Positions 44,105-64,000 of a stretch of 64,000 bases of DNA are shown here, one piece after another. The stretch is from Patescibacteria group bacterium (GTDB lineage Bacteria; Patescibacteriota; Microgenomatia; UBA1400; PJMF01). Where the stretch lies: contig BOKX01000001.1 in NCBI GenBank assembly GCA_016861205.1, forward strand, positions 72,539 through 136,538. The letters run 5' to 3'. The notes beneath the pieces are model-generated. The model saw only the letters and a list, made by a program, of their open reading frames with translations, was not told the origin of the DNA and did not search any database. Within the stretch, counting starts at the first letter, position 1; every line of letters begins with the position of its first letter. The position numbers and the translations under genes are program-made.

Positions 44105-44113
44105 GACACAGAC

Positions 44114-44866: not shown

Positions 44867-45345
44867 ACTTGCGAGCTGAGTTTGCCAAACTTACCTTTGA
44901 TGCCATGGCTAGCGATCCCCGGGTTTGGGTGCTTACTGGTGATTTGGGATTTGGTGTGTGGGACAGCGTTCGCGATCGGTACCCGCGGCGGTTTTTAAAT
45001 GTCGGGGCGGCTGAGCAAGCCATGGTCGATATTGGGGTTGGCTTGGCTTTGCAAGGTCAGATTCCGATTATCTACTCAATTACCCCATTCGTGTTGTATC
45101 GACCGTTTGAGTCATTGCGGAACTATCTCCATCATGAGCAAATTCCGGTCAAACTAGTCGGTAGCGACCGAGATCGGGATTATGGCCACAACGGATTTTC
45201 ACACTGGGCCGAAGAAGACCAACACGTGTTAGCTACACTGCCAAACATTGCCACATTTCGGCCCAGCTCAGAACGTCAGTTGCAGACACAGTTCCGGAAG
45301 TTTATAACATCAACCAAATCTGCCTACCTGAACCTATGCCGGTAG
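44863..45345 (+). CDS. transketolase C-terminal-subunit-like protein (pyrimidine-binding domain only, short)
   Basis: FLNVGAAEQAMVDIGVGLALQG; only 160 aa, so it lacks the usual C-terminal TKC domain. Confidence 0.7.
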   Translation: MNLRAEFAKLTFDAMASDPRVWVLTGDLGFGVWDSVRDRYPRRFLNVGAAEQAMVDIGVGLALQGQIPIIYSITPFVLYRPFESLRNYLHHEQIPVKLVGSDRDRDYGHNGFSHWAEEDQHVLATLPNIATFRPSSERQLQTQFRKFITSTKSAYLNLCR

Positions 45346-46307
45346 CGAGGACGTCCAAACCGTTTATTTCTGCAGTTGTTGCTTGTTATGGTGATGAGTT
45401 GGCGATTCCAATTATGTATCGTCGGTTGGTGCGGGTTTTTGAACTTGTTGGAGCTAAGTTTGAGATTATTTTTGTCAACGATGGTAGCCCCGATAACTCA
45501 CGATCAGTTATAGACGCACTGGCAAAAAAAGATCAGCATGTTGTTGGCGTTCATCACAGTCGGAATTTCGGATCGCAGCTGGCATTCAGCAGCGGTTTAG
45601 AACAGGCGCGCGGACAAGCAGTGGTGTTGCTAGATGGAGACTTGCAGGATCCGCCTGAGCTAATACCAACGATGATCGATCGGTGGCAAGCTGGTTATCA
45701 AGTAGTGTATGGCCAACGAGTTGACCGAGTTGCACCCTGGTACATGCGCTGGGCTTACAAACTTTTTTATCGAATTTTTCAACGCTTATCGTATGTGAGA
45801 GTTCCGGTTGATGCTGGTGATTTCTCACTGATGGATAGACAGGTTGTCGAAGTTTTACAACTGTTCCCAGAACGCGACAGATTTTTGCGAGGTTTGCGGG
45901 CATGGGTTGGTTTCCGACAGATAGGTGTCCCCTATGTTCGTTCTGACCGGGTGTTTGGTCACAGCACCAACAACTTGTTAAAAAATATTCAGTGGGCAAG
46001 CAAAGGCATTTTCTCGTTTTCATTTGTGCCACTGCAGCTGATAACTTGGTTGTCGCTGGTTACATTCTGTATTTCACTCGCCGGCATCGTGGTGCAAGTC
46101 GTTTTACGATGGCTATTGCCTGACACACCACACGGGATTACAACCGTGATTGTGGTAGTTATGTTTTTGGGTGCAATACAACTGCTTGGAATTAGTGTGC
46201 TTGGCGAGTATATCGGCCGAATTTTTGAAGAAGTTAAACAACGACCGCGATTCGTGGTGGAGAAAGTGACACGCCATGGGCGTTCGACTCACCGCCCCAA
46301 CCGCTAA
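45336..46307 (+). CDS. GT2 polyprenyl-phosphate sugar transferase (DPM1/ArnC-like)
   Basis: ISAVVACYGDE, IIFVNDGSPD, LDGDLQDPPE (DxD), C-terminal TM helices. Confidence 0.85.
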   Translation: MPVARTSKPFISAVVACYGDELAIPIMYRRLVRVFELVGAKFEIIFVNDGSPDNSRSVIDALAKKDQHVVGVHHSRNFGSQLAFSSGLEQARGQAVVLLDGDLQDPPELIPTMIDRWQAGYQVVYGQRVDRVAPWYMRWAYKLFYRIFQRLSYVRVPVDAGDFSLMDRQVVEVLQLFPERDRFLRGLRAWVGFRQIGVPYVRSDRVFGHSTNNLLKNIQWASKGIFSFSFVPLQLITWLSLVTFCISLAGIVVQVVLRWLLPDTPHGITTVIVVVMFLGAIQLLGISVLGEYIGRIFEEVKQRPRFVVEKVTRHGRSTHRPNR

Positions 46308-48174: not shown

Positions 48175-48224
48175 TTATAAATTTAGAACTTGCTTAAACC
48201 CAGATGATTGGGTAGGATGATTCG

Positions 48225-50213
48225 ATGCGCAGATCCTCCTACCCCATACGCATTCTAACTAGCATTTTGGCGGTTGGTCTGTGGCTGTTGCTTGCACCCC
48301 TCTCGAAGGCTTTTGCAGCTACGTACTACGTTTCACCAAGTGGTAATGACAGCAATACTGGAACAACTGAAGCACAGTCCTGGCGAACGATTCAACGGGC
48401 GGGTGATGCTGTTTCTCCTGGTGATACTGTCCTGATCGCTCCGGGAACATATAATGGCAGCTCAGGACAACAGTCAGTTTTGTACCCAAGAACTTCTGGA
48501 ACAGCCTCAGCTCCTATTACCTTTAAGTCGCTCAACAGTACCAGACCAGTGTTGTCTGGTATTAACACGGGCAAAGATGTCATCAACTTGACCGATCGCA
48601 ACTATATTGTCATTGATAATTTACAGTTACAAGATCCTTGTAGTAACTGGTGCCGATGGTTAACTTTGGAGAACGCTAATCACAATACAGTGAATAACAC
48701 TCGATTTGTGATGACACGTGCTTCCACTGGAGTTGACTGGATTGGTATCAACTTTCAGAATGCCACTTACAACAAACTAACCAACTGTCACGTTGATGGT
48801 TGGGGGGTGTACGGTGATCCCTACAACAATGGTGGAGACGCGGTTCAACTCAATGGTGCCAGTCACCATAATCTGATTGAAGGTTGTTTTATTGGTGCAG
48901 CAGGTCACGCCGGTTTGCAGCTGGACGGTGGTGATACTTACTTTAATGTAATTCGTAACAATACCTTTCAGAATCGTCTGGAGAAGGCTTTTGAAACTAC
49001 CCAGCGCCGGGCCGGTCGTTTTGAGTACAACTTGTTCGAAGGTAACACGTGTATTGATTCACGTTACAACTCTGAGTTGCACGGAGGCATGTGTTTACAC
49101 ATCAATGCCAACCGCAACATTATCCGCCGTAACGTCCTGAGAGGTGCGCTCGGTTGGGCAATTGATATGCAGGTGTGGGGCGCAGAAACCTTGAACAACA
49201 TTGGTAACCATGTTTTCCACAACACCATTGTCAACAATGGTATCGATCAGTCTGTATACCATGTTCAAGCAACCACAGGTATTGCTATTGAAGATTTTGG
49301 TTACACCGCGGCTCCGCATCGCGATCACCGAATCAAAAATAATATTATTTACGATAACAAACCCCAAACCAACTTCAGCCCACCTCGAAACGTGCAGATC
49401 TTGCTCGGCTTCGATGGAAGCCGATCTGGTGCTCCATTCAGCGGCGTCCAAGTGGCGGGTAACTTACTCCATGGTAACAGTGACACCAATGAGACCATCA
49501 CTGTTTACGGTATGGCTGAAGGTACAGCCCAGTCATACAATCAAAGCCACCCAAATAATTTCTGGGGTAACATCTCGCAAGCTCCGCAATTTGTGGCCTA
49601 CGACCAGGGCGTAGCAAACAATCCGCTTGATGGCACGTTTGATCTAAGACTGCAGGCTGGATCACCAGGCATTGATCAAGGCGTTAGTTTGACACAAACC
49701 ACTGCAGCTGGATCTGGAACGGTGGTTCCTGTGCAGGATGCTGGCTATTTCCAAGATGGCTTTGACGGCATTATTGCTCCAGATCAGATTCGCGTCGGCA
49801 ACAATTTGGTAACGATTTCAGATATTGATTATGGCAACAACCGTATCACCGTTGACCGCTCAATTTCTTGGGCTGCTGGTGATGGTGTTAACTTACCCTT
49901 TTCAGGGAATGCTCCAGATATAGGGGCCTATGAGGCTAACGGTAGTGGAGGCCCTCAAACAAGCAGTACACCGAGCCCAGTAGCTAGTGTTGTGCCTTCC
50001 CCATCGCCTTCCGCTACGCCAAACACGCAGGCCTGCCGCGCGGCCGATATTAATCAAGACAACACTGTTAATCAGACAGACCGGACCTTGCTTATTAATG
50101 ATTTCTTTAAGCGTTTGCCGGTCACACCTCGAGCTGACATTAATGCTGACGGAATTGTCGACATTACAGATTATGGTCTGCTCGTCCAGTCATACCAACA
50201 AACCTGCCAATAA
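48225..50213 (+). CDS. secreted right-handed parallel beta-helix protein with Pro/Ser linker and C-terminal dockerin module
   Basis: Signal peptide. The N-terminus resembles pectate-lyase-fold/DUF1565 proteins (YYVSPSGNDSNTGT...). The C-terminus has two Ca-binding dockerin-type repeats (DINQDNTVNQTDRTLLINDFF, ADINADGIVDITDYGLLVQSY). Confidence 0.65.
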   Translation: MRRSSYPIRILTSILAVGLWLLLAPLSKAFAATYYVSPSGNDSNTGTTEAQSWRTIQRAGDAVSPGDTVLIAPGTYNGSSGQQSVLYPRTSGTASAPITFKSLNSTRPVLSGINTGKDVINLTDRNYIVIDNLQLQDPCSNWCRWLTLENANHNTVNNTRFVMTRASTGVDWIGINFQNATYNKLTNCHVDGWGVYGDPYNNGGDAVQLNGASHHNLIEGCFIGAAGHAGLQLDGGDTYFNVIRNNTFQNRLEKAFETTQRRAGRFEYNLFEGNTCIDSRYNSELHGGMCLHINANRNIIRRNVLRGALGWAIDMQVWGAETLNNIGNHVFHNTIVNNGIDQSVYHVQATTGIAIEDFGYTAAPHRDHRIKNNIIYDNKPQTNFSPPRNVQILLGFDGSRSGAPFSGVQVAGNLLHGNSDTNETITVYGMAEGTAQSYNQSHPNNFWGNISQAPQFVAYDQGVANNPLDGTFDLRLQAGSPGIDQGVSLTQTTAAGSGTVVPVQDAGYFQDGFDGIIAPDQIRVGNNLVTISDIDYGNNRITVDRSISWAAGDGVNLPFSGNAPDIGAYEANGSGGPQTSSTPSPVASVVPSPSPSATPNTQACRAADINQDNTVNQTDRTLLINDFFKRLPVTPRADINADGIVDITDYGLLVQSYQQTCQ

Positions 50214-50233
50214 ATAACAATAGAAACCTATTT

Positions 50234-51262
50234 ATGACCGATACAAATCCTTGGCAACCTACACCTCATGTTGATTATGAACCCAACATTACAGTCGATC
50301 CCAAACCCGGCTTGAGACGTTTGTGGCCGGTGGTGGGGGTAGTAGTGGTTTCGTTAGTGGCAACAGGGATTATCAGTTTTATGCAGCTGGCGAACAAATC
50401 TGAGCCTGACGGCCAGGTAGCTGCTGCTAGCAATGCAGGGACAGCTACGTTGCAGCTGCAACCTGCCAGTCAAAGCTACACAGCTGGACAAGCAGTCTCT
50501 GTGGATATCGTGGCTAATTACGGACTGTCGACGATTGACGGAATGCAGCTCTATGCCAACTTGAGCGGAGCTGTGCCGAGTGATTTACAACTGACACTGA
50601 CCCCACCAGCAGGTTTTGAGGTGGCCAGTAAAGAAGTTGCTTTGAGTGGTTCCAGTCCCCAGTTTAAGTTTGCTTTAGTTTCTCAGAATCCGACAACTGG
50701 CGTAGCAGGTCAAAACCAACCAGTTGTGGTTGGGTCGCTGACGTTTACTGCTCCGACCAGCGGTTCACTGCAAGTTGCCTTTGATAGCAGCTTATCAAAA
50801 TTAATGCAACACAGTAGTAACACCGATATCCTGCGGACGCCAACCAATGGCCAGTTCAGCTTTGTGGCGCCGGCAGTCACCCCAACACCTGTCGCCACTC
50901 CAGTTTTACCGACCCCAACTATAATTGCCACGGCTAAGCCAACGCCAAGTATCATTCCTACTCCGGTGCCTTCCCCATCACCCAGTCCCAGCCCTTCACC
51001 GACGTCTGGAATGACAGTATTACTGGCGCGTTGGCGTGAGTGGCCATGGCGATGGAATCAGCTTAATGTGCAAGTGAAAGCCAACTTTGCACCCCCTACC
51101 ACCATTGAGGTAGTTGGTTTTGGCAAGTTATCGTACAACAAACGAACGAAGATATATCAGAAGGTTTTCTACACCAATCAAAAGCCGACACAGATTGTGA
51201 TCAAGGCAAGTAATGGTGATCAGATTACTGTCCCAGTCGAGATTATTAAGTTTGGCAAATAG
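50234..51262 (+). CDS. N-terminally membrane-anchored protein with cohesin-like beta-sandwich domain and Pro/Thr/Ser linker
   Basis: TM anchor at residues 28-50; the domain QAVSVDIVANYGLSTIDGMQLYANLSGAVP resembles a cohesin; TPTPVATPVLPTPT...SPSPSPSPSP linker. Confidence 0.4.
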   Translation: MTDTNPWQPTPHVDYEPNITVDPKPGLRRLWPVVGVVVVSLVATGIISFMQLANKSEPDGQVAAASNAGTATLQLQPASQSYTAGQAVSVDIVANYGLSTIDGMQLYANLSGAVPSDLQLTLTPPAGFEVASKEVALSGSSPQFKFALVSQNPTTGVAGQNQPVVVGSLTFTAPTSGSLQVAFDSSLSKLMQHSSNTDILRTPTNGQFSFVAPAVTPTPVATPVLPTPTIIATAKPTPSIIPTPVPSPSPSPSPSPTSGMTVLLARWREWPWRWNQLNVQVKANFAPPTTIEVVGFGKLSYNKRTKIYQKVFYTNQKPTQIVIKASNGDQITVPVEIIKFGK

Positions 51263-51285
51263 TTGAAATTGCCTGCTCAAAGTCT

Positions 51286-52530
51286 ATGGTTTCACGGATC
51301 AGTGCCGAAGGCGAGTCATGTTTTCATCAAAGTACTGTTGGCACGGTGCTTCTCGAACTTGGTTTGGCTGGTCAGTTCCCAAATTGGTTGAATGTTCCAC
51401 TAGTTCTTGAGTCAGTTGATCATGGTGACAGAACTGAGTATGTGGCAACAGTTCTCAGAACACTTGACTCAAAGAGTTTGTATGACTTTTTAAGGGCGAC
51501 GACCAACAACCGTTTTGACCCGGGAGTGGTCGATGTACGCTCAGATTGGGAAATGCCAGATAGAGCTCATGGTCGCCCTGGCTCAGGAGTTGAGTACTTC
51601 CGAAGACTGCTTCACCTTCACGAGGCAATGGGGACAAGTTGGTTGGCTTTCGAGACTGTTCGGCGTGAGTTTATTACCGCTATCGAGCCACCACTTGAGA
51701 CACAAATTCGAACTACCTTGCCCTGCCCGTTTTTGATTGAGCCACAAATAGCAGCTGATTTGAAGAGCAAGTTATATCGACATGGTAAGGCAACCAACCA
51801 ACTATTTGCAGAGTTACTTCGCGAAACTACTCGAGCTAATCTTCAGGTGATCTTAGCGAATTCTCGAGTTCAACATGAATTGTTGCCACATGAACGAAAA
51901 ATGGATGCAACCGAGTTGCAGCGGCAAATTCTGGGTAGGATTCGCCACTCACAATGGTACAGCCAGCGTTTTTTTGACTCAGAACTTTGGTCGGCGTTGT
52001 TACGGCGCTATCGGGAGCAGTTTTTCGAAGCTACTGAGGTTCAACTGTTGACCGGTGAGAAGGTGACAGCGTATCAGATGCGAGCTCAAGATAGTAGCAA
52101 CCTTAATCTCAGACTTCATCAAAATGGTCGGTGGTATGACTTGGTTCTCGAGCATGATCGCTTGCTCTACCGGACAAACCAAGATGGTGCAACGGTAAGT
52201 TTGGTGCCTAGTATTCACTGGACTAAAGTTGAAAGTTCAGTGGCCCGTCACACGCGAGAGCTACATGTGAGTAGCTTGCTGGGAAAAAGCGCAGAGACTG
52301 TGGCTGGCGTGAGCATCAATCGCAACTCACTGATGGGTATCTTATTGGTCGCTTTATTTTCTCCTGAGGAACGCCAATTGTGGCCTACCAAAATGGGTTT
52401 GCCAGGTGGTAACTATGAGCAAGCAATTGGACCAGGACAAGCTCCTGTTATGGCTCACCTTCGTGCTACACAACTCAGTGAATCGGCTATCTTGCCGGCC
52501 ATGGAAGCTTTGCTATCACAGGAAGGTTAG
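51286..52530 (+). CDS. hypothetical protein
   Basis: 414 aa with no motif; last gene of the plus-strand block. Confidence 0.35.
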   Translation: MVSRISAEGESCFHQSTVGTVLLELGLAGQFPNWLNVPLVLESVDHGDRTEYVATVLRTLDSKSLYDFLRATTNNRFDPGVVDVRSDWEMPDRAHGRPGSGVEYFRRLLHLHEAMGTSWLAFETVRREFITAIEPPLETQIRTTLPCPFLIEPQIAADLKSKLYRHGKATNQLFAELLRETTRANLQVILANSRVQHELLPHERKMDATELQRQILGRIRHSQWYSQRFFDSELWSALLRRYREQFFEATEVQLLTGEKVTAYQMRAQDSSNLNLRLHQNGRWYDLVLEHDRLLYRTNQDGATVSLVPSIHWTKVESSVARHTRELHVSSLLGKSAETVAGVSINRNSLMGILLVALFSPEERQLWPTKMGLPGGNYEQAIGPGQAPVMAHLRATQLSESAILPAMEALLSQEG

Positions 52531-53054
52531 TTTTCAGTTGCAGCAGGCGAAGCTGAAGGAATGGGGCTCTCTTCAGTCGTGTCAGCCCGATTGTTACCCT
52601 CGGTAGCCGGTTCAGCCGTCCCATTTTCGTTATCAAGGACTAATGGACCAGAATTGACAATGATATTTCGCTCAGGACTGTAGACAAAAGCTTTTTGTGC
52701 CTGTGGATAGATAACGAGTTTGTCACCGTTCTGGGCTTGGGCATAAAAGGCTGATTGAGTGGCTAAAAAGGCAGAATCAATGATTGTAGCAACCACTGGC
52801 TCTTCTTCTGGAAGCAACACCAATTTGCCTAGCCGTTGCACAACGGCTTGAATTTCACGCTTAGCCAGTTCCTCTTGGGCACCAGGCTGGGTTAACTGCC
52901 TAAGTTGCTGACGAGTTTGGTAGTACATGAACCCAGTTGCAGCTAAGCCTCCAAGTAAAAGCAGAATCAAGAAAGCCAAAAAGATAGTAAACTTACCACC
53001 TTTTTTCTTGGTTTTTGGACTTACTGTGGGAGTTGATTCGGTTTGTTCATTCAT
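52527..53054 (-). CDS. membrane-anchored hypothetical protein
   Basis: Basic N-terminus, single TM (FTIFLAFLILLLLGGLAATGF), Ser/Thr/Pro-rich C-terminus. Confidence 0.4.
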   Translation of the reverse strand: MNEQTESTPTVSPKTKKKGGKFTIFLAFLILLLLGGLAATGFMYYQTRQQLRQLTQPGAQEELAKREIQAVVQRLGKLVLLPEEEPVVATIIDSAFLATQSAFYAQAQNGDKLVIYPQAQKAFVYSPERNIIVNSGPLVLDNENGTAEPATEGNNRADTTEESPIPSASPAATEN

Positions 53055-53093
53055 ACAGTGCAGCTGCTATTGTGCAACGTCTCGGCAAGATCG

Positions 53094-56000
53094 TCAAGGT
53101 TCAAGCGGAATGCTTTCGGTGGTGCTTGGGGTTGGGGTAGGTACAGGGCTTACTTCCTGGCTTGGGGTTGGGGTAGGAGTTGGATCGATGGTTGGGCTCG
53201 GTGTCGGGCTGCTGGTAGGTGCCAGGCTAGCACTTGGGTTGGGTGTGGGCGAAGTTACTGAGGTTTCTAACTCAATCGAGCTACCCGCTACCGATTCAAC
53301 GACTCGTGGATCAGTAACTGCCACCGCCACCCAGTTAATCGTAACGTCCTCAGTGAGTGGCTCAGCTATTTGGATAGTGAAACTGTCTTGGGTGGTTTGG
53401 GTGACTCGCAGGCCAGAAACAGCTTTTTGGGCTGTTACCGTGACGACTGGTGGGGTGATAAAGCTGTGTTCGAAGGGCACCGTTACAGTCGTAGCACCGG
53501 CCTTAATTACTGCATAACCAGCTGCGTCTTTATCACTTAGATAGAGACGGCCACGGACGGTGACATCAGCCAAAAACTCAGCTGGCTTCTCAAAAATGGT
53601 TTTGCCAATGATGGTCAATACATCGCTGCCCCAGGTCATGAATGGATTGAGCTCTGCCCGGGCCACCCACTCTGCGTTATCGAGAGCTAATTCATGAGTT
53701 GATTGGTCAGCATAGAAATCGGTTAAGTCTTCACCGTTGGTGAGGTTTTTAATACGAACTAACTTTTCACCAGAAAGTTTTTCTACCACGCGCAGCGCTT
53801 TGGTCATGTCAGCATTGATGGCTAAGCCGTTGCGCTCTGAGTAAAAAGCCCAGGCAAGATCTTCACTGCGCTGGTTATCGAGCAGACTAAAGTTGTGCGG
53901 TGAGAGGGTGGTGACGTTCCCCGCTTCGTCCCGGACTTGGAGCTCGTGACTACCGGCGACATCCACTGCAAACAGTTGAATACCATCAGTGATACTAGTA
54001 GTAGGTGCTGTTGAGCTAGCAATGGCGAAGACTCTACTGGCATTAGTTCCAAATGCGAGTGTCGGTAAGAGCCCGACATTCTGAGCGCTATCAATCCGCA
54101 AAGCGGTGACGGTATTGGTGGCAAAGCCCATTGAGTCAGTATCGTGGTGGTAGGCGATCACGCCCATATCCTCACTATCTTCGTCTGAGAAGCTCAACAA
54201 TTGGTGGGCAGTATTATTGCTAACCCACTTCAAACGGTTAGTATCGAAGTGTTCCAGGACCAACGTATCGTTGCCGTCCAGGGTGTAGGCCCGATTCGTG
54301 GCGGTCCGGCGAATGTGGGTAAAGCCCTCAGGGTTGGAAGTGTTGATACCAATGCGCCCGCTTTCCCGCAGTACAAACCGTGTTGTACCTGAGGATGACG
54401 CAGTCAAAATATCATTGGTTCCAGTCTCATTGAGTACAGCCAATGCTTTGCCGGTCTGAGTCCCTGTTAGTTGTAGTCGATGGATGGGAGATGTGGTTCC
54501 CATGCCGATGTTTCCTCGATCTTGGACATATAGGCCTGAGTTGCCACCTGAGTCAGTAATATTCAGTGCTCCACCCGTGGTAGTGCCATTGCCACTCACC
54601 TGTAACCGAGCGCCAGGGACGTATGTTCCAATCCCGATATTACCAGCATTGTTGGGATTGAATAGGATGTCATACCCACTGCCGCCAGCGGCAGTCCGAC
54701 CGCCCAAAATATAGCCGTACTCACCTATCGCCTGACCACTGATGCGGATTCCACCAGAGTTATAGCCAAGGCCGGTGTCGACACCCAAGTTTTGTGACAA
54801 ATAGACCCGCGATACAAAATCCCACCGCACATCGATGGTGCCAGCACTGTGTCGAACGTGGCCGTCATTGTTGGGACCAACGTGAAGGGAGGCTTGAGGG
54901 CTGGTTTCGCCGATACCCAAGCGACCAGTCCCGGTGAAGGTGAACAGGTCACTGCTTCCGTAGAGTCTTAAATCATCACCTGTGTTGTTGTACCACTGGA
55001 AGTTGGTGCCTGAACCATCGCGAGAGTCCATCTGCACACCTCCATTTGCACCAGTGACACGGAGCAGCTCGGCCACCCGAGCAGTACCATTAACATCCAG
55101 TTTGTAACTGGTGGAGGTAGTTCCAACTCCCACGTTGCCACCGCTTGGGTTAAGAAGAATTGGTGTGTATTGATTATTATCGCCGCTCTGAATGATAGCG
55201 GCTGTGTTATTGCCAGTGTTCTTATTGAGGATGAGATACCCTCCGTGCGTAGTGTAACTGGTGCCCTTCAAAGCCAGAGCGGCGCCGTTATCGATATTGT
55301 CGGCTGTAGCCAATATATCGAGCATAAACCCTGGAGTACCAAGACCCAGGCCCATGCGGCCGCTATTGGCTAGGACCAGTTTGGTGGTGCCGCTGGCGCT
55401 GGCGGTGAGAATATCACCGGCATTCGTTTGATTGATAATAGCCGCAGCATTGGAGCCATATTTTCCATCTACATGCAAAGCAGCGGTAGGAGCAGAGTTA
55501 TTGATACCCATTAAACCTGAAGCCCCAATATCTAACCAAGCAGTTACGATGTTGTTGGAATTATCTTGAATGGTGAGTGGTGTACCTGCAAAGTTTTCGC
55601 GATCAAAAATAGCCCATTTTTGAACGTTAGCTGCCTTAAATGTAATTCCGTTTCCTGCCCCAGCGCCACCATCCATATACAGCCCGGTCCCCGTATTATT
55701 GCTTTTCACATAGATATCAGCAACAGAGGCGTCCCAGATGTAGATATCCGAAGTTGGAGCAGTGGTACCAATACCTAGCTGGCCGGAGTTGGAAAGCACC
55801 ATTTTGGTGGTACCACTGGCGCTAGCACTTAAAATATTCCCGCTCAAAGTCTGGTTAATTGTCAAAGCATCATTAGCACCGTAGCCGCCGTTGATGTGGA
55901 GGAGAGCGGTGGGTGTGGTGGTGCCGATGCCAACTAAGCCACTGGCATTAATTAATAATTGTGTTGTAGAACTTGTTCTCAATGCTAATGAGGTGTTTTC

Positions 56001-58433
56001 ATATCCCAATGACAGAGCTGATCCCGATAAGGTCATCGCAGAATAATTAACGCCACCAATATAGTAGATTCCAGAGTTATAGATACCCCCACCACTTGTA
56101 ATAGATGTAGTTGCACGCAAATTGCCAGTTATATCTACCTTGTATGTTGGTACTGTGGTGCCAATACCAATGTTACCGCCAAATTCATTCAAGATCAGGT
56201 TGGCGGCTCCCAATCCTGAAAATGCCTGGATGTTGGAGTATGTTGTGCCAGAGCTGGCACCAGGTCTAAAGTTGACTCCTGATACACCATCCGCATTCTT
56301 AAATTGTGCCCAACGTGTACTCGAAACACCCACAACTTCAAATTTTGTATCAGGCGTTGCCGTTCCTATCCCAACGTTTCCGGTCGAAGCATCACCATAA
56401 TAAAGGATGGCGCTACTTTGACCCAAAACTCTGGTGTCATAATTTTGTGCATCGTAGTTGAGCGTAATAATGGGCTGTGGATCGTTGACACTGTAGTGCA
56501 ACATTTTTAGGTTGCCCTGATTTTCAATCCAAAAGCCATTCATGGTGTGCAGTGATGATGTATCACCGTTAGTAGTGGAGAGATAGACATCATAACTACC
56601 ATCTCGCTTAACGCCGATTCTGTTTCCGCCACCACCGTTGGCGAAGATGTTGCCCTGTACAATCAGCTTCTCTGCGGGAGTGGCTGTACCAATTCCTAGA
56701 TTTCCAGCATTGGTGAGTACCATCCTTGTCGTCCCACTAGCACTCGCGCTCAAAATATTTCCACCCAAGGTTTGGTTGACAGTGAAAGCATCATTGGCAC
56801 CGTAGCCGCCGTTGACGTGCAAGAGAGCCGTGGGAGAAGTGGTGCCGATGCCCACGAGTCCATTGATACCGTTAATAATCATTCTGACACTAGGTGTTGC
56901 CCCACCTGTATAGAATCTCAGTTGTGCTGTGTCACCACCTGAATCAAGATAGCTATTTATTCTGGCAGAGCCAACAAAATTACCTGATCCCGCTCCATTG
57001 TTTCTATTTGTAAAATTAATGCCAATCTCGTCGAATGAAGTGGCATGAGTATTGTTTAATGTTAGGAAAGCTGTACCTGGAGCACTAGCACTACCCGCTC
57101 CATTAATCATAAGTTTTGATTGTGGTGTTGTGCCTCCTATGCCCAACCGCTTATTGGTATCATCCCAAAAGAAATTGGCATTATCCTGTGTAATGCCACT
57201 CGCTCCCTGGAACAGCACTGAACCACTCGTCAAACCTGGATTTAAGCTTCCAGCCACATTGGCACTTCCATTAAACACGCCATTAGCATCCACGTAGGAC
57301 AGCACTGAACCAGAAGCATCACGCCATTCGGTTAGGTTGGCAGTCTGGCCTGTGTAGCCTTGGATGATTTGACCAATTTTGGTGGCTAAGTTGGTAAAGA
57401 CATGAAAGCGCGAAACGGGACTGGTGGTCGAAATCCCCACACTGCCACCATCATGATACAAATTGTTACTCGATACCCAGTTAGTGCCATTAAAGTACAA
57501 GGTCATGCCGTTGGTGGCACTGGGCAAGACGGCCTCAGCACTGGGAGTAGCTGCACCGCCGCCGCCAGTTTGGTCTTCCACCAAGATCAGCTTGCCGCCA
57601 CTGTCCACCGATAACACCTTGCCACCACCTACTCCAGCCGCCGTGGAAGAAGTGACTCGGGTGAAGGTAATACCGGTTTCGCCATCGGTGCCAGAATCTA
57701 CCTCCAGTTTATTGGTCGGGCTGGAGGTGCCGATGCCGACACGGTTGCTACTGGTGATCAGGGCCACGTTGCTCGAGCTAGCCTTGTACCAGCCACTCAA
57801 GTTGTCTGCCGAGACTGTCAATTTCTTGTCAGAAGTATTAAGGCTCAACGCCACTCCTGATCCGGCAGTAAACTCAAAGGTATCTGTGTTAGAACCAGCA
57901 CTGGCTGTATCGTCACCGACTTTGATGGACTTGAAGATTTTTTGGTCAGAACCGCGGTCAGCGTTAGTGATCGTGATGTCTTGATCGCCACTGACCGTAA
58001 TGCCGCCACCGGCTACCACTGAGTAAACTAGATTTGAGGCAGTAATTTCGCCAGATCCGACGTCGATATCTATCCCATTGGCGTTTAAGTTGCCGAGTAG
58101 TTGTGCGCCGTTTTCCAAGATCACTTCATTAACGAATCTGGCTTGACCTTCAAAGACTGACTGCTCTTGAACCACCAGTGACGCTACGGTAACCGCATCA
58201 GCGAAGACGGCTGGAATGTTAACCTGAAAGAGTGGCGAGAGGATGGTGGCCTCTGATCCCGAGGTGGTGGGTAGGAAACTACTGCCTGTAGCAGGTAGAA
58301 CTTGGGCTAGTTGGGTCGAAAGTCCGAGCACTGAGCTGGATCTCATGTCACCAAGCACCTGGCGAGTCGTGACGAGAGCCAGTCCTAGTGACATTAGCAG
58401 TAAGCCAGTTGTTTTAGCTTTATTTAAACGCAC
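53094..58433 (-). CDS. giant (1779 aa) secreted repetitive fibre protein, tail-fibre-like Gly/Thr/Ser-rich beta-repeats, paralogue 1
   Basis: GTG start and signal peptide. Recurring (L/V)GIGT(T/S)SPT..L(H/E)V units. Conserved C-terminal module (TIFEKPAEFLADVTVRGRLY...), then a Pro/Thr/Ser tail. Confidence 0.7.
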   Translation of the reverse strand: MRLNKAKTTGLLLMSLGLALVTTRQVLGDMRSSSVLGLSTQLAQVLPATGSSFLPTTSGSEATILSPLFQVNIPAVFADAVTVASLVVQEQSVFEGQARFVNEVILENGAQLLGNLNANGIDIDVGSGEITASNLVYSVVAGGGITVSGDQDITITNADRGSDQKIFKSIKVGDDTASAGSNTDTFEFTAGSGVALSLNTSDKKLTVSADNLSGWYKASSSNVALITSSNRVGIGTSSPTNKLEVDSGTDGETGITFTRVTSSTAAGVGGGKVLSVDSGGKLILVEDQTGGGGAATPSAEAVLPSATNGMTLYFNGTNWVSSNNLYHDGGSVGISTTSPVSRFHVFTNLATKIGQIIQGYTGQTANLTEWRDASGSVLSYVDANGVFNGSANVAGSLNPGLTSGSVLFQGASGITQDNANFFWDDTNKRLGIGGTTPQSKLMINGAGSASAPGTAFLTLNNTHATSFDEIGINFTNRNNGAGSGNFVGSARINSYLDSGGDTAQLRFYTGGATPSVRMIINGINGLVGIGTTSPTALLHVNGGYGANDAFTVNQTLGGNILSASASGTTRMVLTNAGNLGIGTATPAEKLIVQGNIFANGGGGNRIGVKRDGSYDVYLSTTNGDTSSLHTMNGFWIENQGNLKMLHYSVNDPQPIITLNYDAQNYDTRVLGQSSAILYYGDASTGNVGIGTATPDTKFEVVGVSSTRWAQFKNADGVSGVNFRPGASSGTTYSNIQAFSGLGAANLILNEFGGNIGIGTTVPTYKVDITGNLRATTSITSGGGIYNSGIYYIGGVNYSAMTLSGSALSLGYENTSLALRTSSTTQLLINASGLVGIGTTTPTALLHINGGYGANDALTINQTLSGNILSASASGTTKMVLSNSGQLGIGTTAPTSDIYIWDASVADIYVKSNNTGTGLYMDGGAGAGNGITFKAANVQKWAIFDRENFAGTPLTIQDNSNNIVTAWLDIGASGLMGINNSAPTAALHVDGKYGSNAAAIINQTNAGDILTASASGTTKLVLANSGRMGLGLGTPGFMLDILATADNIDNGAALALKGTSYTTHGGYLILNKNTGNNTAAIIQSGDNNQYTPILLNPSGGNVGVGTTSTSYKLDVNGTARVAELLRVTGANGGVQMDSRDGSGTNFQWYNNTGDDLRLYGSSDLFTFTGTGRLGIGETSPQASLHVGPNNDGHVRHSAGTIDVRWDFVSRVYLSQNLGVDTGLGYNSGGIRISGQAIGEYGYILGGRTAAGGSGYDILFNPNNAGNIGIGTYVPGARLQVSGNGTTTGGALNITDSGGNSGLYVQDRGNIGMGTTSPIHRLQLTGTQTGKALAVLNETGTNDILTASSSGTTRFVLRESGRIGINTSNPEGFTHIRRTATNRAYTLDGNDTLVLEHFDTNRLKWVSNNTAHQLLSFSDEDSEDMGVIAYHHDTDSMGFATNTVTALRIDSAQNVGLLPTLAFGTNASRVFAIASSTAPTTSITDGIQLFAVDVAGSHELQVRDEAGNVTTLSPHNFSLLDNQRSEDLAWAFYSERNGLAINADMTKALRVVEKLSGEKLVRIKNLTNGEDLTDFYADQSTHELALDNAEWVARAELNPFMTWGSDVLTIIGKTIFEKPAEFLADVTVRGRLYLSDKDAAGYAVIKAGATTVTVPFEHSFITPPVVTVTAQKAVSGLRVTQTTQDSFTIQIAEPLTEDVTINWVAVAVTDPRVVESVAGSSIELETSVTSPTPNPSASLAPTSSPTPSPTIDPTPTPTPSQEVSPVPTPTPSTTESIPLEP

Positions 58434-58604
58434 GTGACAGTTTCAAAGTCCTAACACCAGACACACCACTCTGCCCCATCCCCGCCTCGGCGGATGGTTG
58501 GCAATGGCGTTGCTGGTTTAACACTTCACCCAGTGTACGGGATTTTGGTCGAGTGCAATAGACGAAAAAGAAGCGAAAATCAGCTGTGGAAATGTGACAG
58601 TACT

Positions 58605-61600
58605 TTACTGCGCATCAAGGTCGGGACTGGCGCTGATCGTTGCCGTGGTTGGGGTTGGCATCAGTTCTGGGCTGGGGCTACTGCTGTCAACAGCTGTCGG
58701 AGATGGATTGGGGCTAGCTGATGGTGTGGGTTGTTGTTGAGCCTGAGTCGGTGCTTCGGTAGGAGTGTTCTCGGTCCGCTTGAGTTGCTCAACAGAGATC
58801 GTACTCCAAACAACCTCAGTATCACTTGGCTGTGTCTCAGCCAAGAACACAACAAAACCAGTGGGAGTTACGTCTTTGACGGTCACTTTGGCAAAACTGT
58901 TCTGTGGGGTCAGGGTGATGACTGGGGTTTGCTTGAATGGTACCTCAAAGTTAACTGTCACCGTAGTTGAGCCTGCTTTCAGAACGGCCACTCCAGCTTT
59001 GTCTGGTTCACTGAAAGTGACCCGGGCTTTGAAAGTGACCTCAGCCAAGAACTCTGTGGGTTTTTCAAAGATGGTTTTGCCAATAATGGTCAGCACATTA
59101 CTACCCCAAGTCATGAAAGGGTTGAGCTCGGCTCTAGTAATCCATTCGGCATTATCTAGAGCTAGTTCTTGGCTTGACTGATCGGCGTAGAAATCGGTGA
59201 GGTCTTCGCCGTTGGTGAGATTCTTTATGCGGATGAGTTGCTCACCAGATAACTTTTCTACTACGCGCAGCGCTTTAGTCATGTCAGCGTTGATGGCCAG
59301 ACCATTGCGTTCAGAGTAAAAAGCCCAAGCCAAGTCTTCACTGCGTTGGTTATCCAGCAAGCTGAAGTTGTGAGGTGACAATGTAGTGACATTACCTGCC
59401 TCATCCCTAACTTGCAGCTCGTGACTACCTGTCACGTCCACGGCAAAAAGTTGGATGCCGTTAGTAAGTGAAGTGGTGGGTGCAGTAGAGTTGTAGATAG
59501 CGATGGTGTTGGCAGCCGTGTCTCCGTAGGTGTTAGTGCCGACGCCTACGTTTCCATTGTAGGAAATCGAAAACACGTCTTGGTTACTGTACAAACGCAT
59601 GGCGTTCCCATCCTGGTTATACCAGAGGAAACTGTAGGTGCCACCCCAGCGCGGCGTGGCATAGAATCCACCATCATTGCCGGTGACGCGGATGATGTTG
59701 TTAGAGCGAATTTCGCCATTCACATCCAGTTTATAGGAGGCGGTAGTGGTTCCAATGGCCACGTTGCCACCACCCGGGTTAAGCAGCAGCGGCAAGTGAA
59801 TGCTATTATCGCCCACTTGGATGAGACCTGGCGTGTCATCACCAGTGTTTTTGTTGAGAATCATGTAGCCACCGTGCGTACTGTAACTAGTACCTTTGAG
59901 CGCTAGTGCGGCACCATTGTCGGTGCCATCGGCAGTAGCCGTGACATCGACCATATAGTAAGCCAGCGAATTATTAACTCCCAGCCGACCTGCGTTGGTG
60001 AGGACCATTTTGGTGGTGCCACTGGCGCTGGCGCTCATAATATTGCCGCCCAAAGTTTGGTTAATAGTCAGAGCATCATTGGCGCCATAGCCGCCGTTGA
60101 TGTGCAAGCGAGCGGTGGGAGAAGTGGTGCCCATGCCAATGGTGCCATTTTCACGGACGTACAGTGCAGAAACGTAGTTGAGGTCGGTGGCGTTAAAGAC
60201 TGCGCCGGTGGTGGTGCCAAAGCCGGCCACATGCAACCGAGCGTTGGGAGCATAGTTACCCACACCCACACTGCCAGTTGAGCCAGGGTTGAAAATCAAG
60301 TCGTACCCACTGGCACCCCAAGCGGTGCGACCACCCAAGATGTAACCGTACTCATTGGCAGCTTGGCCACTGACTCGGATACCACCAGAGTTATAACCAA
60401 AACTACCTTCCACTCCCAAATTCTGAGATAAGTAGACACGAGACACGTAATCCCAGCGAACATCAATCGTGCCATTGCTGTGGCGAACGTGGCCATCATT
60501 GTTGGGACCGACGTGGAGCTGAGCCTGGGGGTTGGTTTCACCAATACCGACGTTGCCAGCGGCAGTAATTCTCATGCGTTCAGTTGCAGTGCCGTCCCCA
60601 GAGTTGTCACCAGTTAAAAATCTCAAACCATCTCGTGTGTCAGCTCCCAACTCCATGCCGACGAAGGTGCTGCCTGATGTTCTGGCCATACGCAAGTATC
60701 CATAAGCGTTATCAGAACTATTGTCAAAATCCATGTAAGTACCCAAATATGCGATAGTACTTCCCGCATTACCTGACAGGAGCATTCCTCCTTGTTGATC
60801 TAAAGATAATGATCCAACCGAGACATCAAGTTTTTTGTTGGGGATAGTAGTGCCGACACCTACATTTCCAGTGGATGCATCTCCATAAAGTAGAGTGCCC
60901 GTTGTGCCCTTTATCCACGTATCAAAATTTTGGCTGTTTTCATTCAAAGTAATAATGGGTTGAGCAATACTACTGTTATAGCTAAGTATTTTAAACGCGT
61001 TTGGTTCTTCTATCCAAAAACCAGCTTGAGTGTGGAGGAGGGATGTATCACCATTGGTTGTTTTGAGATAAATCTCATAAGAGCCATCTCTTGTTGAGCT
61101 TAATTTACCGCCATCTCCGGTATTATTTGCAACGATATTTCCCACCACGTTAAGCTTGTACGTTCCTGGGTTGGTTGTCCCAATACCCACATTTCCACCA
61201 TTGGTAATTACAAATTTAGTAGCTCCACTGGCACTGGCACTCAAGATGTTGCCACTCAAAGTTTGGTTGATGGTCAAGGCGTCGTTAGCGCCGTAGCCAC
61301 CAGTAATATGCATGAAGGCTGTAGGTGAAGTTGTCCCAACCCCAACGTTTCCACCCATAAACGTAGCAAGTATAGAGTGATTACTACCAGTCACCTGAAA
61401 AGGAATATTTTGGAATGGATAACCCGACGTTATTCGCAATGGATGATTGAAAGTGGAGTATGGTCCTCCATTTGCTGTATTAGCAGCAAAAGAGATACCA
61501 CCTGGACCATACAAACCTAAACCTTGACCGATACCAACACCATTTGCTCCACCGATATAGGCGTTTTGTCCACTTGAGTGATCAAAAACAATTCTGTTTG

Positions 61601-63278
61601 TCGTCGAGCTCCAAGGCAAGGTCAGCAAACCAGTTGCAGTGGTAGTCCCAATACTGACATTATTCCCTGCTGGATTTAAGGTAAGTGGTTGACTATTGTA
61701 TGACTGAATGGCTTTGGTTGTGAAATTAATACCCAAGCTATTTGCTTGAATGACTTGATCCGAGCTTAACAAGAGTGTTTCCGTAGCGGCGGCATTGGTA
61801 ATCGAAGCTCCATACGCTCCTGAACCTGCTGTCCTGCTTACAACAAAAATTGGCACATTTCCTGCATCAACAACTTCAAACAAGTTTGCAGAGGCGGCAC
61901 CTGCAGCTTTGATTCTCAATCCTTTTGTAGTTGCATCCGGTTCGAGTATTTCTAGTTGTGCCGTAGGTCCACTCGTTCCTATCCCCAGCCTATTCGTCGA
62001 GTTATCCCAAAATAAATTAGCATTATCCTGGGCGATGCCATTGGCATCCTGGAACAGCACCGAGCCGGTGGTCAAACCTGGGTTCAAGCTTCCCGACACA
62101 TTGGCCGTGCCGTTAAAGACACCGTTGGCGTCAATGTACGACAAGACATTGCCACTGACATCTTGCCACTCGGTCAGGTTGGCGGTCTGAGAAGTGTAGC
62201 CACGGAAAATAGCGCCAATTTTGGAAGCCAAGTTGGAGTTCACTTGGAAGCGAGATAGCGGATTGGTGGTAGAAATTCCCACACTGCCGCCATCGTGATA
62301 GAGATTATTGCTCGATACCCAGTTGGTGCCATTGTAGTAAATCGTCATACCACTGGTAGCACTGGGCAAAACCGCCTCGGCGCTGGGAGTGGCTGCACCG
62401 CCGCCGCCGGTTTGATCTTCCACCAGAATCAGTTTGCCACCACTATCCACCGAAAGGACCTTGCCGCCCCCCACACCCGCCGCCGTTGAAGAAGTGACGC
62501 GGGTGAAGGTAATACCGGTTTCGCCATCGGTGCCGGAATCAACTTCCAGTTTGTTGGACGGTGACGAAGTACCAATGCCTACTCGGTTGGTACTCGTGAT
62601 CAGGGCCACGTTACTGCTACTGGCTTTGTACCAACCCGACAAGTTGCTGGCGGTGAGGGTCATTTTTTTATCGCTCGTGTTGAGAGACAAACTGATGCCA
62701 TCGCCAGCTGAAAATTCAAAGGTGTCGGTATTGCTGCCAGCTTCAGCGGTGTCACTGCCCACTTTGACTTTGCTAAAGATTTTCTGAGCTGAGCCACGAT
62801 CAGCGTTAGTGATGGTCAAGTCTTGATCGCCACTGACCGTAATGCCGCTACCAGCAATCACCGAATAGACTAAGTTTGAGGCTGTAATCTCTCCAGTACC
62901 GACATCAATATCAATGCCGTTGGCATCCAAGTTACCCAGCAGCTGGGCTCCGTTCTCTAAAATTACCTCATCCACAAACCGAGCTTGACCATTGAATACT
63001 GATTCTTCTTCGACGATCAGTGATAATAGGGTGGCTGTATCGGTAAAAACTGCGGGAATATTGACCTGAAACAGCGGTGACAACCCACTCGCACCATCGG
63101 CCGAGCCACTCGGCAGGAAACTGGTGCCAGTGTTGGGCAAAACCTGGGCCAACTGAGTAGAAAGTCCCAGAACGCGACCTTCCTTTTGAGCAAAACCGAA
63201 TACCTGACCGACGGTTACCACCGCCAACCCCAGGGAGAGCAAAGCTAAGCCAGTCGTTTTTACAGCGTTCCGTTTCAT
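58605..63278 (-). CDS. giant (about 1557 aa) secreted repetitive fibre protein, paralogue 2
   Basis: The ORF track gives 58605..63341. I prefer start MKRNAVKTTGLALLSLGLAVV at about 63278 (signal peptide, parallel to the paralogue 1 start). Same repeat units and C-terminal module. Confidence 0.7.
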   Translation of the reverse strand: MKRNAVKTTGLALLSLGLAVVTVGQVFGFAQKEGRVLGLSTQLAQVLPNTGTSFLPSGSADGASGLSPLFQVNIPAVFTDTATLLSLIVEEESVFNGQARFVDEVILENGAQLLGNLDANGIDIDVGTGEITASNLVYSVIAGSGITVSGDQDLTITNADRGSAQKIFSKVKVGSDTAEAGSNTDTFEFSAGDGISLSLNTSDKKMTLTASNLSGWYKASSSNVALITSTNRVGIGTSSPSNKLEVDSGTDGETGITFTRVTSSTAAGVGGGKVLSVDSGGKLILVEDQTGGGGAATPSAEAVLPSATSGMTIYYNGTNWVSSNNLYHDGGSVGISTTNPLSRFQVNSNLASKIGAIFRGYTSQTANLTEWQDVSGNVLSYIDANGVFNGTANVSGSLNPGLTTGSVLFQDANGIAQDNANLFWDNSTNRLGIGTSGPTAQLEILEPDATTKGLRIKAAGAASANLFEVVDAGNVPIFVVSRTAGSGAYGASITNAAATETLLLSSDQVIQANSLGINFTTKAIQSYNSQPLTLNPAGNNVSIGTTTATGLLTLPWSSTTNRIVFDHSSGQNAYIGGANGVGIGQGLGLYGPGGISFAANTANGGPYSTFNHPLRITSGYPFQNIPFQVTGSNHSILATFMGGNVGVGTTSPTAFMHITGGYGANDALTINQTLSGNILSASASGATKFVITNGGNVGIGTTNPGTYKLNVVGNIVANNTGDGGKLSSTRDGSYEIYLKTTNGDTSLLHTQAGFWIEEPNAFKILSYNSSIAQPIITLNENSQNFDTWIKGTTGTLLYGDASTGNVGVGTTIPNKKLDVSVGSLSLDQQGGMLLSGNAGSTIAYLGTYMDFDNSSDNAYGYLRMARTSGSTFVGMELGADTRDGLRFLTGDNSGDGTATERMRITAAGNVGIGETNPQAQLHVGPNNDGHVRHSNGTIDVRWDYVSRVYLSQNLGVEGSFGYNSGGIRVSGQAANEYGYILGGRTAWGASGYDLIFNPGSTGSVGVGNYAPNARLHVAGFGTTTGAVFNATDLNYVSALYVRENGTIGMGTTSPTARLHINGGYGANDALTINQTLGGNIMSASASGTTKMVLTNAGRLGVNNSLAYYMVDVTATADGTDNGAALALKGTSYSTHGGYMILNKNTGDDTPGLIQVGDNSIHLPLLLNPGGGNVAIGTTTASYKLDVNGEIRSNNIIRVTGNDGGFYATPRWGGTYSFLWYNQDGNAMRLYSNQDVFSISYNGNVGVGTNTYGDTAANTIAIYNSTAPTTSLTNGIQLFAVDVTGSHELQVRDEAGNVTTLSPHNFSLLDNQRSEDLAWAFYSERNGLAINADMTKALRVVEKLSGEQLIRIKNLTNGEDLTDFYADQSSQELALDNAEWITRAELNPFMTWGSNVLTIIGKTIFEKPTEFLAEVTFKARVTFSEPDKAGVAVLKAGSTTVTVNFEVPFKQTPVITLTPQNSFAKVTVKDVTPTGFVVFLAETQPSDTEVVWSTISVEQLKRTENTPTEAPTQAQQQPTPSASPNPSPTAVDSSSPSPELMPTPTTATISASPDLDAQ

Positions 63279-63367
63279 ACAAACACACACCATCTCGCTC
63301 CTCTTTTCCCAAGTAAGGTCAAGAAGCAATGGCGTACGCAAATGGTCACTGTTACCAATAGTACGTG

Positions 63368-63407
63368 GTTTTCGTCAAGTGCAACAGACGAAAAAGATGC
63401 GAAAGTG
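63368..63407 (-). promoter_or_regulatory. conserved inter-paralogue element (hairpin TTTTCGTCaagtgcaacaGACGAAAA plus GCAATGGCGT box at 63326..63335), also at 58540..58580 and 58501..58510
   Basis: The same two sequence blocks sit at the same spacing upstream of both giant genes; read directly from the sequence. Confidence 0.45.
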
Positions 63408-63417
63408 GGTACTTAAA

Positions 63418-64000
63418 TTACTCGGTGGGTGAAGGGGCGGGAGTTGGCGACAGAGTGGCTGAAGTGCTGGCTCCAGCTACCTCTGGAGAAGGGCTGGGGG
63501 CGGCTGAGCCGGTAGGACTGGATGAAGTGGTTGGGGTTGCTGTTGGTGATGGTTCAGTGCTGGCAGCTGGGGTGGTGACAGCCGCTGATGGTGCGGCTTG
63601 GCCCTGTGTGGTTCGGAGGCCGGTTACCGCCAGAGCGGTCCAGGTGATCTTGAGCTCGGTGGGTTGGGGCGATTCAATGGTGACCTTGAAGCCAGTTGGG
63701 CTGACCTCAGTCAAAGTGGCGCGAACATAACTATTTTGAGTGGTCAGCGTCACGGCTGGAGCCACCACAAAGGCATGTTCAAACGGCACTTCTGCCATGG
63801 TGTCGCCGGGTTTCATGATGATCTGGCCAGCGGCATCTTTGTCGCTGAAGTAGACTCGGCCACGGAAAGAGACTTCGGCCAAAAATTCGGCTGGTTTTTC
63901 AAACACTACTTGGCTGAGGAAAGTCCAAGTATTGTCGGTCCATTTTACTAACGGTGAGAGCTCAGATTGGGTCACAAACTGGGCGACTTGGAGATTAGCC
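63418..64000 (-). CDS. 3' part of a third paralogous fibre-protein gene (continues beyond window end)
   Basis: C-terminal module VVFEKPAEFLAEVSFRGRVYF... is homologous to those of paralogues 1 and 2, followed by a Pro/Thr/Ser tail. The track ORF starts at an internal Met, but the homology continues upstream. Confidence 0.55.
   Translation of the reverse strand, partial: ANLQVAQFVTQSELSPLVKWTDNTWTFLSQVVFEKPAEFLAEVSFRGRVYFSDKDAAGQIIMKPGDTMAEVPFEHAFVVAPAVTLTTQNSYVRATLTEVSPTGFKVTIESPQPTELKITWTALAVTGLRTTQGQAAPSAAVTTPAASTEPSPTATPTTSSSPTGSAAPSPSPEVAGASTSATLSPTPAPSPTE

Follow-up and report, generated by a model that had tools for sequence, protein, structure and literature searches.

A strain-variable tandem array in a Patescibacteria genome encodes predicted fibres resembling the mosaic adhesive trimers of Bdellovibrio

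The 64,000-nt stretch analysed here (contig BOKX01000001.1 of a Patescibacteria group bacterium; termed the window, to which all positions refer unless stated) raises the question of what a tandem array of giant fibre-like genes is for, and how its conserved ends and variable centres arose. Open reading frame (ORF) listing and translation located three minus-strand ORFs lying head-to-tail, denoted g1, g2 and g3, as described in a first-pass annotation of the sequence and as called in the source record. A protein search returned their products, P0001 (100% identical to g1), P0003 and P0004, as the only three matches from the 1,149,156-bp NCBI contig that carries them. The full g3 product, P0004 (1849 aa), has the same architecture as g1 and g2, consisting of a hydrophobic N-terminus, a conserved N-terminal domain (N-domain), a variable beta-helix body, a conserved 125-aa domain termed the pre-tip, a beta-sandwich and a Pro/Thr/Ser-rich tail that is present in every homologue aligned. 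The array is best interpreted as encoding strain-variable adhesins of an episymbiont that resemble the mosaic adhesive trimer (MAT) fibres of Bdellovibrio, with a likely role in recognition of, and attachment to, the surface or a surface glycan of a partner or host cell; this interpretation, drawn from sequence comparison, is given a probability of about 0.6.

The body of each fibre is built from a recurring unit, likened in the first-pass annotation to phage tail-fibre-like adhesin repeats. Copies of its GIGT..P..L motif, searched as [VILMA]G[VILM][GN]..P...L, number 10 in g1, 7 in g2 and 10 in g3. The tail-fibre likeness was borne out by matches to PHROG families 18345 and 9942, at E-values of 2.9e-27 and 2.9e-26 for g1 and of 5e-7 and 1e-8 for g2. 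The sole sequence matches in the Protein Data Bank (PDB) were fibres of Bdellovibrio bacteriovorus, namely 8ond (Bd2133), 8ojn, 8oml and 8on4 (Bd1334), and 8ol4, with the body also aligning to Bd3182. The match to 8ond had an E-value of 3.8e-8 with phmmer and 3.2e-19 with the family profile. A loop of the form G-x-G-T-x-x-P-x-x-x-L-H-V is common to the fibres described here and to the ‘capping loop’ of the Bdellovibrio MATs; the body is a beta-helix with the MAT capping-loop motif (V-G-G/N-pi-x-x-P-x-x-x-L) and is homologous in sequence to Bd2133, Bd3182 and Bd1334.

MAT fibres are surface adhesins of the bacterial predator B. bacteriovorus (Caulton et al. 2024, PMC10769870). All 21 paralogues, which include Bd2133, Bd1334, Bd3182 and Bd2439, share a signal peptide followed by a beta-rich N-terminal domain of ~130 aa, and combine conserved N-termini with S74 or non-S74 ends and mosaic tips; in Bd2133 and Bd1334 the N-termini are 75% identical and the tips, at the C-termini, have been exchanged (PMC10769870). 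A mosaic design with one conserved and one diversified end is also present in the array, with the N-domain 79–82% identical in amino acid sequence among the three paralogues, the sandwich 42–52% identical and the centres shuffled. Over the first ~440 aa the identity was 79% for g1/g2, 77% for g1/g3 and 74% for g2/g3, and over the last ~330 aa it was 60%, 54% and 54%. Among the modules common to all three, the sandwich has diverged furthest (30–55% amino acid identity between genomes), and the pre-tip is uniformly 75–91% identical within as well as between genomes. The centres of g1 and g2 could be aligned as permuted modules only, with residues 1136–1366 of g1 corresponding to 879–1103 of g2 and residues 961–1175 of g1 to 1033–1246 of g2, and a 189-nt module occurs in four copies, two in each gene. 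Conserved termini and diverged centres, as first described, therefore hold for all three paralogues at the protein level. The accompanying estimate of 85–90% identity between termini at the DNA level does not, since the DNA identity is 72–77%, with 74% measured at the N-terminal end (1108 nt) and 77% at the C-terminal end (456 nt). For the visible part of g3, blastn aligned nothing to either of the other genes, and protein identity to them was only 39–41%.

The C-terminal sandwich was the only part well modelled in the first AlphaFold2 job, for which an alignment of eight sequences was used and only monomer models were generated, with a predicted local distance difference test score of ~90. 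Foldseek placed this model in the H-type lectin / discoidin-like jellyroll fold. The top match was Helix pomatia agglutinin (2ccv; probability 1.00, E 2e-3), followed by Helix aspersa agglutinin (4q56; probability 1.00), with template modelling scores normalized on the target of 0.54 for 2ccv and 0.51–0.54 across the two. Other matches were the C-terminal domains of the cyanophage Pam1 and Sf6 tailspikes, fibres of the R1 and R2 pyocins, discoidin II and the C-terminus of K1 lyase, with 7eea, 6cl6 and 6ct8 among the entries. The Pfam H_lectin family (PF09458) was matched by 27 of 43 family members at E<=0.1, with a best E-value of 3.4e-6. The lectin-like tip proposed for this module in the first-pass annotation is thus supported at the level of fold. 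The R-pyocin ‘foot’, a distal and subtype-specific receptor-binding domain, has as its structural relatives the same set of structures that the sandwich matched (Salazar et al. 2019, PMC6363177).

Immediately upstream of the sandwich, and joined to it in g1 by a linker of ~30 aa, lies the pre-tip, recognizable in g1 by the signature STAPTTSITDGIQLFAVD..GSHELQVRDEAGNVTTLSPHNFS..EDLAWAFYSERNGLAINADMTKALRVVEKLSGE. No equivalent of this domain exists in Pfam, PHROG or the PDB, and none of 50,697 deposited phage genomes contains it. Searching its profile against 1.84 billion representative proteins yielded 7417 matches at E<=1e-3, 581 of them at E<=1e-30. The domain is a very large unannotated family with which tail-fibre-like proteins often end: among the top 151 matches, 87 (137–1151 aa) terminate exactly at the domain and 39 carry the sandwich too, and the remainder of those pre-tip-ending proteins that were examined was tail-fibre-like and without a Pfam family. 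In IMG/VR, 132 loci encode the domain, and on one 57-kb viral contig it ends an 837-aa tail fibre adjoining tail and distal-tail proteins.

An auto-chaperone had been suggested as the other possible identity of the C-terminal module, and a self-cleaving peptidase S74 domain was accordingly considered for g1–g3. No match to PF13884 (Peptidase S74) was obtained for any of the three in Pfam, nor is an SDxxxK motif present at the pre-tip position; a lone SDAGLK in g3, 124 aa upstream of that position, was attributed to chance. Alignment of the pre-tip with the S74 domains of homologues using hhalign gave a probability of 11%, and the candidate was rejected. S74 domains do occur in paralogues and homologues elsewhere: in P0008, P0010, P0011, P0013, P0015, P0016, P0017 and P0022 a canonical Peptidase_S74 with SDxxxK takes the position of the pre-tip, between the last turn of the beta-helix and the same sandwich. 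As judged by these comparisons, the pre-tip is an alternative to S74 without detectable derivation from it. Because its conservation is uniform, a role in folding, trimerization or capping would fit better than ligand binding. Holding the position that the S74 chaperone takes in other fibres, the domain is worth a structure.

At the opposite end, hydrophobic N-termini occur in all three proteins, with MKRNAVKTTGLALLSLGLAVVTV in g2 as the counterpart of TTGLLLMSLGLALVTT in g1 and the type conserved in g3. The basic-then-hydrophobic arrangement is a putative Sec signal peptide or signal anchor. The N-domain that follows has no Pfam, PHROG or PDB match, and its signature peptides had no real match in 2.9 million IMG/VR viral contigs. 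Scans with N-domain patterns recovered five loci in genomes and two in metagenomes, the genome set being species representatives among which the source genome is not included. N-domains group by genome, with identities of 79–82%, 66–83% and 72% within genomes and 50–63% between them, a pattern compatible with duplication within lineages or with co-adaptation to an anchoring partner particular to each genome.

Evidence that the locus varies between strains was obtained from a 17-kb Logan contig of a conspecific strain (L007, run SRR27676189) that is syntenic with window positions 43847–54164 and carries the same eight downstream genes. The flanks are 98–100% identical at the nucleotide level, with synonymous divergence (dS) of 0.02–0.05. 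The fibre gene on this contig (P0002, 1944 aa) is 96–100% identical to g1 from the first codons of the pre-tip onward, including an exact run of 380 nt after the junction that would have a chance probability of ~1e-4 at 2.3% divergence. Immediately upstream of the junction, near position 54164, identity falls to <=73%, and the centre beyond it is unrelated to that of g1 (~35% amino acid identity). The N-domains of P0002 and g1 are 91% identical in amino acids and 45% identical at third codon positions. The contig end truncates the next gene upstream in L007, whose C-terminus is like that of g3 (88% amino acid identity in the sandwich) rather than g2; it follows that L007 lacks an equivalent of g2 or that the order of its array is another one. 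Since 31-mers that are shared interrupt Logan contigs, as seen for L094 (below), a contig that runs through the junction argues for a real molecule. Variability of the locus between strains, in keeping with the first-pass annotation, is thereby supported in that a sister contig with near-identical flanks has a different N-terminus and centre and a sharp junction inside g1. Replacement in the sister strain is well supported by the sequence, if not proven. Between these strains dS is 0.10–0.28 across 53289–53753 (linker, sandwich and tail) and 0.03 in the pre-tip, compared with 0.02–0.05 in the flanking genes; from this contrast, the 3’ portion of g1 would seem to be pieced together from small recombination tracts. 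No signal of positive selection on the sandwich was found between strains (dN/dS ~0.19).

The array recurs in relatives, with variable copy number and composition. A 1.21-Mb Joint Genome Institute contig (L092) contains three tandem paralogues of 1451, 1603 and 1412 aa with start/stop overlaps and the same architecture. In a 1.41-Mb metagenome-assembled genome (MAG; L001) fibre genes of S74 type and of pre-tip type stand at the two ends of a row, with genes for a 1714-aa LamG protein and a TPR protein between them, and in L091 a single fibre gene is followed by an unrelated 2116-aa gene.

These features can be assembled into a working model in which the products are long, secreted and probably trimeric fibres on the plan of phage tail fibres and Bdellovibrio MATs. 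After export by the Sec pathway, the fibre would be retained at the cell surface by its signal or anchor peptide together with an N-domain of ~400 aa that is specific to the lineage. The intertwined beta-helix body, with its 7–10 capping-loop motifs and its homology to known fibres at the sequence level, would provide length. The C-terminal block, a conserved, phage-derived pre-tip followed by the H-type-lectin-like sandwich, would present a putative glycan-binding tip at the distal end. With three bodies and three lectin variants, one cell could display several specificities, and variation would arise by recombination at domain boundaries between diverged alleles or lineages rather than by homogenization among copies. 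Such a function would suit the lifestyle of the group, as cultivated Patescibacteria are epibionts that need adhesins (PMC10633639), and little is known of how members of the group, ultra-small and mostly uncultivated, recognize host cells beyond type IV pili (PMC12206443, PMC10633639). The Patescibacteria surface-biology literature that was searched describes large surface proteins and adhesins but no tail-fibre-like fibres. The large unannotated family of tail-fibre terminal domains is a secondary outcome. If true, the model would supply a specific locus, variable between strains, on which predictions of host range might be based.

Several points weigh against this attachment model. Trimerization, surface display and ligand binding are all properties that we infer. 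The H_lectin scores of g1 (13.7–16.3 bits) and g3 (18.6 bits) fall below the Pfam gathering score of 24 bits, and g2 had no H_lectin match in a whole-protein Pfam scan. The fold E-values for the predicted model are marginal (2e-3), and the same fold serves as a purely structural C-terminal cap in some tailspikes. In S74-type homologues (P0013 on L001, 4–2481) self-cleavage at SDxxxK should release the sandwich and the Pro/Thr tail, which are downstream of that site, along with the chaperone. This is an ill fit to a distal tip, and in such homologues the fragment either remains attached after its release or includes a sandwich that serves some other purpose. Finally, the strain comparison rests on one short-read contig, L007.

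Strain-variable surface islands have classically been attributed to phage pressure, and the fibres could instead form a structural or protective coat, acting as S-layer-like fuzz, a spacer or a phage decoy, with variability representing escape from phages or grazers that use the fibres as receptors. The replacement of the locus between strains would be accommodated by such a coat, and the Pro/Thr tails together with the neighbouring glycosyltransferase genes suggest that it would be glycosylated. However, both a terminal domain of lectin-like type and homology to dedicated adhesins (MATs and the R-pyocin foot) point to binding, and three lectin variants per genome are easier to explain by several ligands, leaving a coat of this kind unlikely.

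It is much less likely still that the genes encode tail fibres of a prophage, tailocin or contractile injection system rather than cellular adhesins. The repeats and the pre-tip are indeed common to tail fibres of uncultivated phages. Against this, all three proteins have signal or anchor peptides, the N-domain is essentially absent from viral contigs as described above, and the architecture recurs as chromosomal arrays in differing contexts in other genomes of 1.2–1.4 Mb. The neighbours are cellular rather than phage structural genes, with no phage gene in the 10 kb downstream of the array, the upstream side of g3 lying beyond the window.

The first-pass annotation had explained the conserved ends by gene conversion or cassette exchange of a surface adhesin, and antigenic variation within a genome by conversion among the copies would account for tandem paralogues with conserved ends, variable centres and N-domains that cluster within genomes. 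Recent conversion was nonetheless rejected because g1 and g2 agree at ~45% of third codon positions, in the N-domain as in the pre-tip, and the longest exact DNA run common to the two genes is 35 nt (g1 copy at 57658–57692). In the whole 64-kb window no repeat exceeds 82% identity, and all direct repeats of >=40 nt lie inside the array. With third positions near saturation and no long identical tracts, the conserved ends are old and have been kept by purifying selection on the protein. Each copy also has a full-length ORF and its own conserved promoter-like element, and neither silent cassettes nor repeat pairs of the diversity-generating retroelement (DGR) type were found in the window. DGR-type diversification was in turn discarded for want of template/variable repeat pairs in the window, a result that does not include a systematic search for a reverse transcriptase. 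Conversion among copies is consequently highly improbable. From the alignments, cassettes appear to be exchanged at the level of the population, through homologous recombination where two domains meet, and not by intragenomic conversion. Of the earlier proposal, the tail-fibre-like, lectin-like and strain-variable components and the variable copy number are supported; recent conversion, the S74 identity and the DNA figure are not.

That the conserved termini are an assembly artefact through repeat collapse or chimerism, an eventuality for which no support was found beyond repeat-rich loci being error-prone in principle, can be given negligible weight, as the copies differ by 23–28% in DNA, the ORFs are intact, homologues in other genomes share the architecture, and independent Logan contigs (DRR258780/DRR258781) are 100% identical to window positions 46853–57687, 50807–53636 and 2423–7766. 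One of these (L094) stops at 57687, a distance of ~5 nt from where the 35-nt g1/g2 repeat begins, as expected of a k=31 assembler faced with two real paralogues, and so acts as a control that both exist in the sample.

A more ambitious combined interpretation is possible, though doubtful as a whole. The array may be a host-range determinant of an episymbiont, composed of phage-derived receptor-binding fibres each with a lectin tip, in which bodies and N-termini are swapped between lineages at the pre-tip boundary. The pre-tip would then be both a universal recombination joint and a folding cap that replaces S74.

The coordinates of the array and its elements are collected in Table 1.

Table 1. 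Positions of the fibre genes, their domains and associated elements in the window.
Feature	Position	Strand	Remarks
g1 fibre gene	53094..58433	(-)	1779 aa, GTG start; source call P0001 begins at an ATG 13 codons downstream (1766 aa)
g1 signal peptide or membrane anchor (putative)	58353..58433	(-)	RLNKAK + hydrophobic TTGLLLMSLGLALVTT; read from sequence
g1 conserved N-terminal domain	57105..58286	(-)	aa ~50-443; end presumed to lie nearest the cell
g1 variable centre, beta-helix body	54156..57104	(-)	aa ~444-1426; capping-loop motifs of VGIGTTSPTALLHV type, shuffled modules
g1 pre-tip domain	53754..54155	(-)	aa 1427-1560; strain-level recombination junction at 5’ edge (~54164)
g1 C-terminal beta-sandwich	53289..53666	(-)	aa 1590-1715; H-type-lectin / discoidin-like ‘foot’, putative ligand-binding tip
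g1 Pro/Thr/Ser-rich C-terminal tail	53097..53288	(-)	64 aa; from translation
g2 fibre gene	58605..63278 or 58605..63293	(-)	MKRN..., 1557 aa, or source call P0003, 1562 aa
g2 N-domain	61953-63128	(-)	
g2 pre-tip	59229-59555	(-)	
g2 sandwich	58782-59141	(-)	
g3 3’ end	63418..64000	(-)	stop at 63418; last 193 aa; runs off the window edge
g3 sandwich	63607-63972	(-)	
Promoter-like element	58528..58578 (upstream of g1), 63354..63404 (upstream of g2)	(-)	TTTCGC.TCTTTTTCGTCT.TTGCACT.GAC.AAAA, ~50 nt

Of the two possible starts of g2, the ATG at 63293 is preceded by GAGGAG, with the alternative ATG at 63278. The promoter-like element corresponds to direct repeat D7 (82% identical), is conserved beyond synonymous sites and is also present upstream of the L007 allele (~2010–2060 of that contig), which suggests a separate promoter for every copy, a function that is inferred from this conservation. 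A second common motif, GGTGGTGTGTGT, lies near the start codons. A generic scan for promoters and terminators performed no better than on shuffled sequence.

The neighbourhood of the array consists of sugar-metabolism, glycosyltransferase and dockerin genes. On the opposite strand, positions 45336–53054 encode a GT2 glycosyltransferase and a 632-aa protein with ~7 transmembrane segments, and a secreted beta-helix protein with a dockerin is encoded at 48225–50213. Membrane-anchored proteins are also encoded there, one of which, of 175 aa and on the fibre strand, has a Pro/Thr-rich tail. The genes at 45336–53054 could constitute a glycosylation or envelope module for the fibres. In Southlakia, a dockerin protein is essential for epibiotic growth (PMC10633639).

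Elsewhere the window contains glycolytic and sugar-nucleotide genes and two tRNAs, together with two separate large PPDK_N / PEP (phosphoenolpyruvate)-utilising proteins (5738–7981 and 28343–30853) within one 64-kb stretch of a very small genome. The enolase is 66–69% identical to proteins of Patescibacteria group, Woesebacteria and Pacebacteria organisms, and 74% identical to the enolase of the fibre-bearing 1.41-Mb MAG, which is deposited as ‘Vitreimonas sp.’. The organism is taken to belong to the Patescibacteria (CPR) and to have a genome of ~1.15 Mb. MAGs of 1.1–1.4 Mb labelled ‘Vitreimonas sp.’ or ‘Pseudomonadales bacterium’ (L001/L090, L002 and L003; proteins P0005, P0013, P0083, P0147 and P0158) combine a Patescibacteria-like enolase with the fibres, and by these sequences the labels are probably wrong.

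Among known systems, the pre-tip is comparable to Peptidase S74 (PF13884) of endosialidases and tail fibres in occupying the same position. The sandwich in turn resembles the foot of R-pyocins and myophages and the C-termini of podophage tailspikes, through the matched structures 2ccv, 6cl6, 6ct8, discoidin II and the tailspike C-termini. It differs from them in that sequence identity is only 12–25%, in the Pro/Thr tail that follows and the other conserved domain that precedes it, and in belonging to a cellular protein that appears to be secreted by a signal peptide.

The comparison with MATs extends over the whole fibre. The differences are that the host is a monoderm-type member of the Patescibacteria, a group absent from the carriers listed in Table S3 of PMC10769870; that the N-domain spans ~400 aa rather than ~130 aa, the PDB entries covering the C-terminal parts of MATs only; that variation here falls in the middle, between two conserved ends, the tip being what mainly varies in MATs; that the terminal block differs, with a strongly conserved pre-tip near the C-terminus; and that the genes are strictly tandem. 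To our knowledge, Bdellovibrio is the only experimentally characterized case in which such bacteria employ the logic of phage receptor-binding proteins, and if the fibres described here are adhesins, that logic would extend to a second, unrelated group living on other bacteria. The similarities are a sequence-homologous beta-helix body with the same capping-loop motif, a hydrophobic or signal N-terminus, an N-terminal region conserved among paralogues together with variable C-terminal parts, S74 and non-S74 members in both families, and several paralogues per genome. Bdellovibrio must recognize other bacteria, and the same need may be assigned to the Patescibacteria host of this array.

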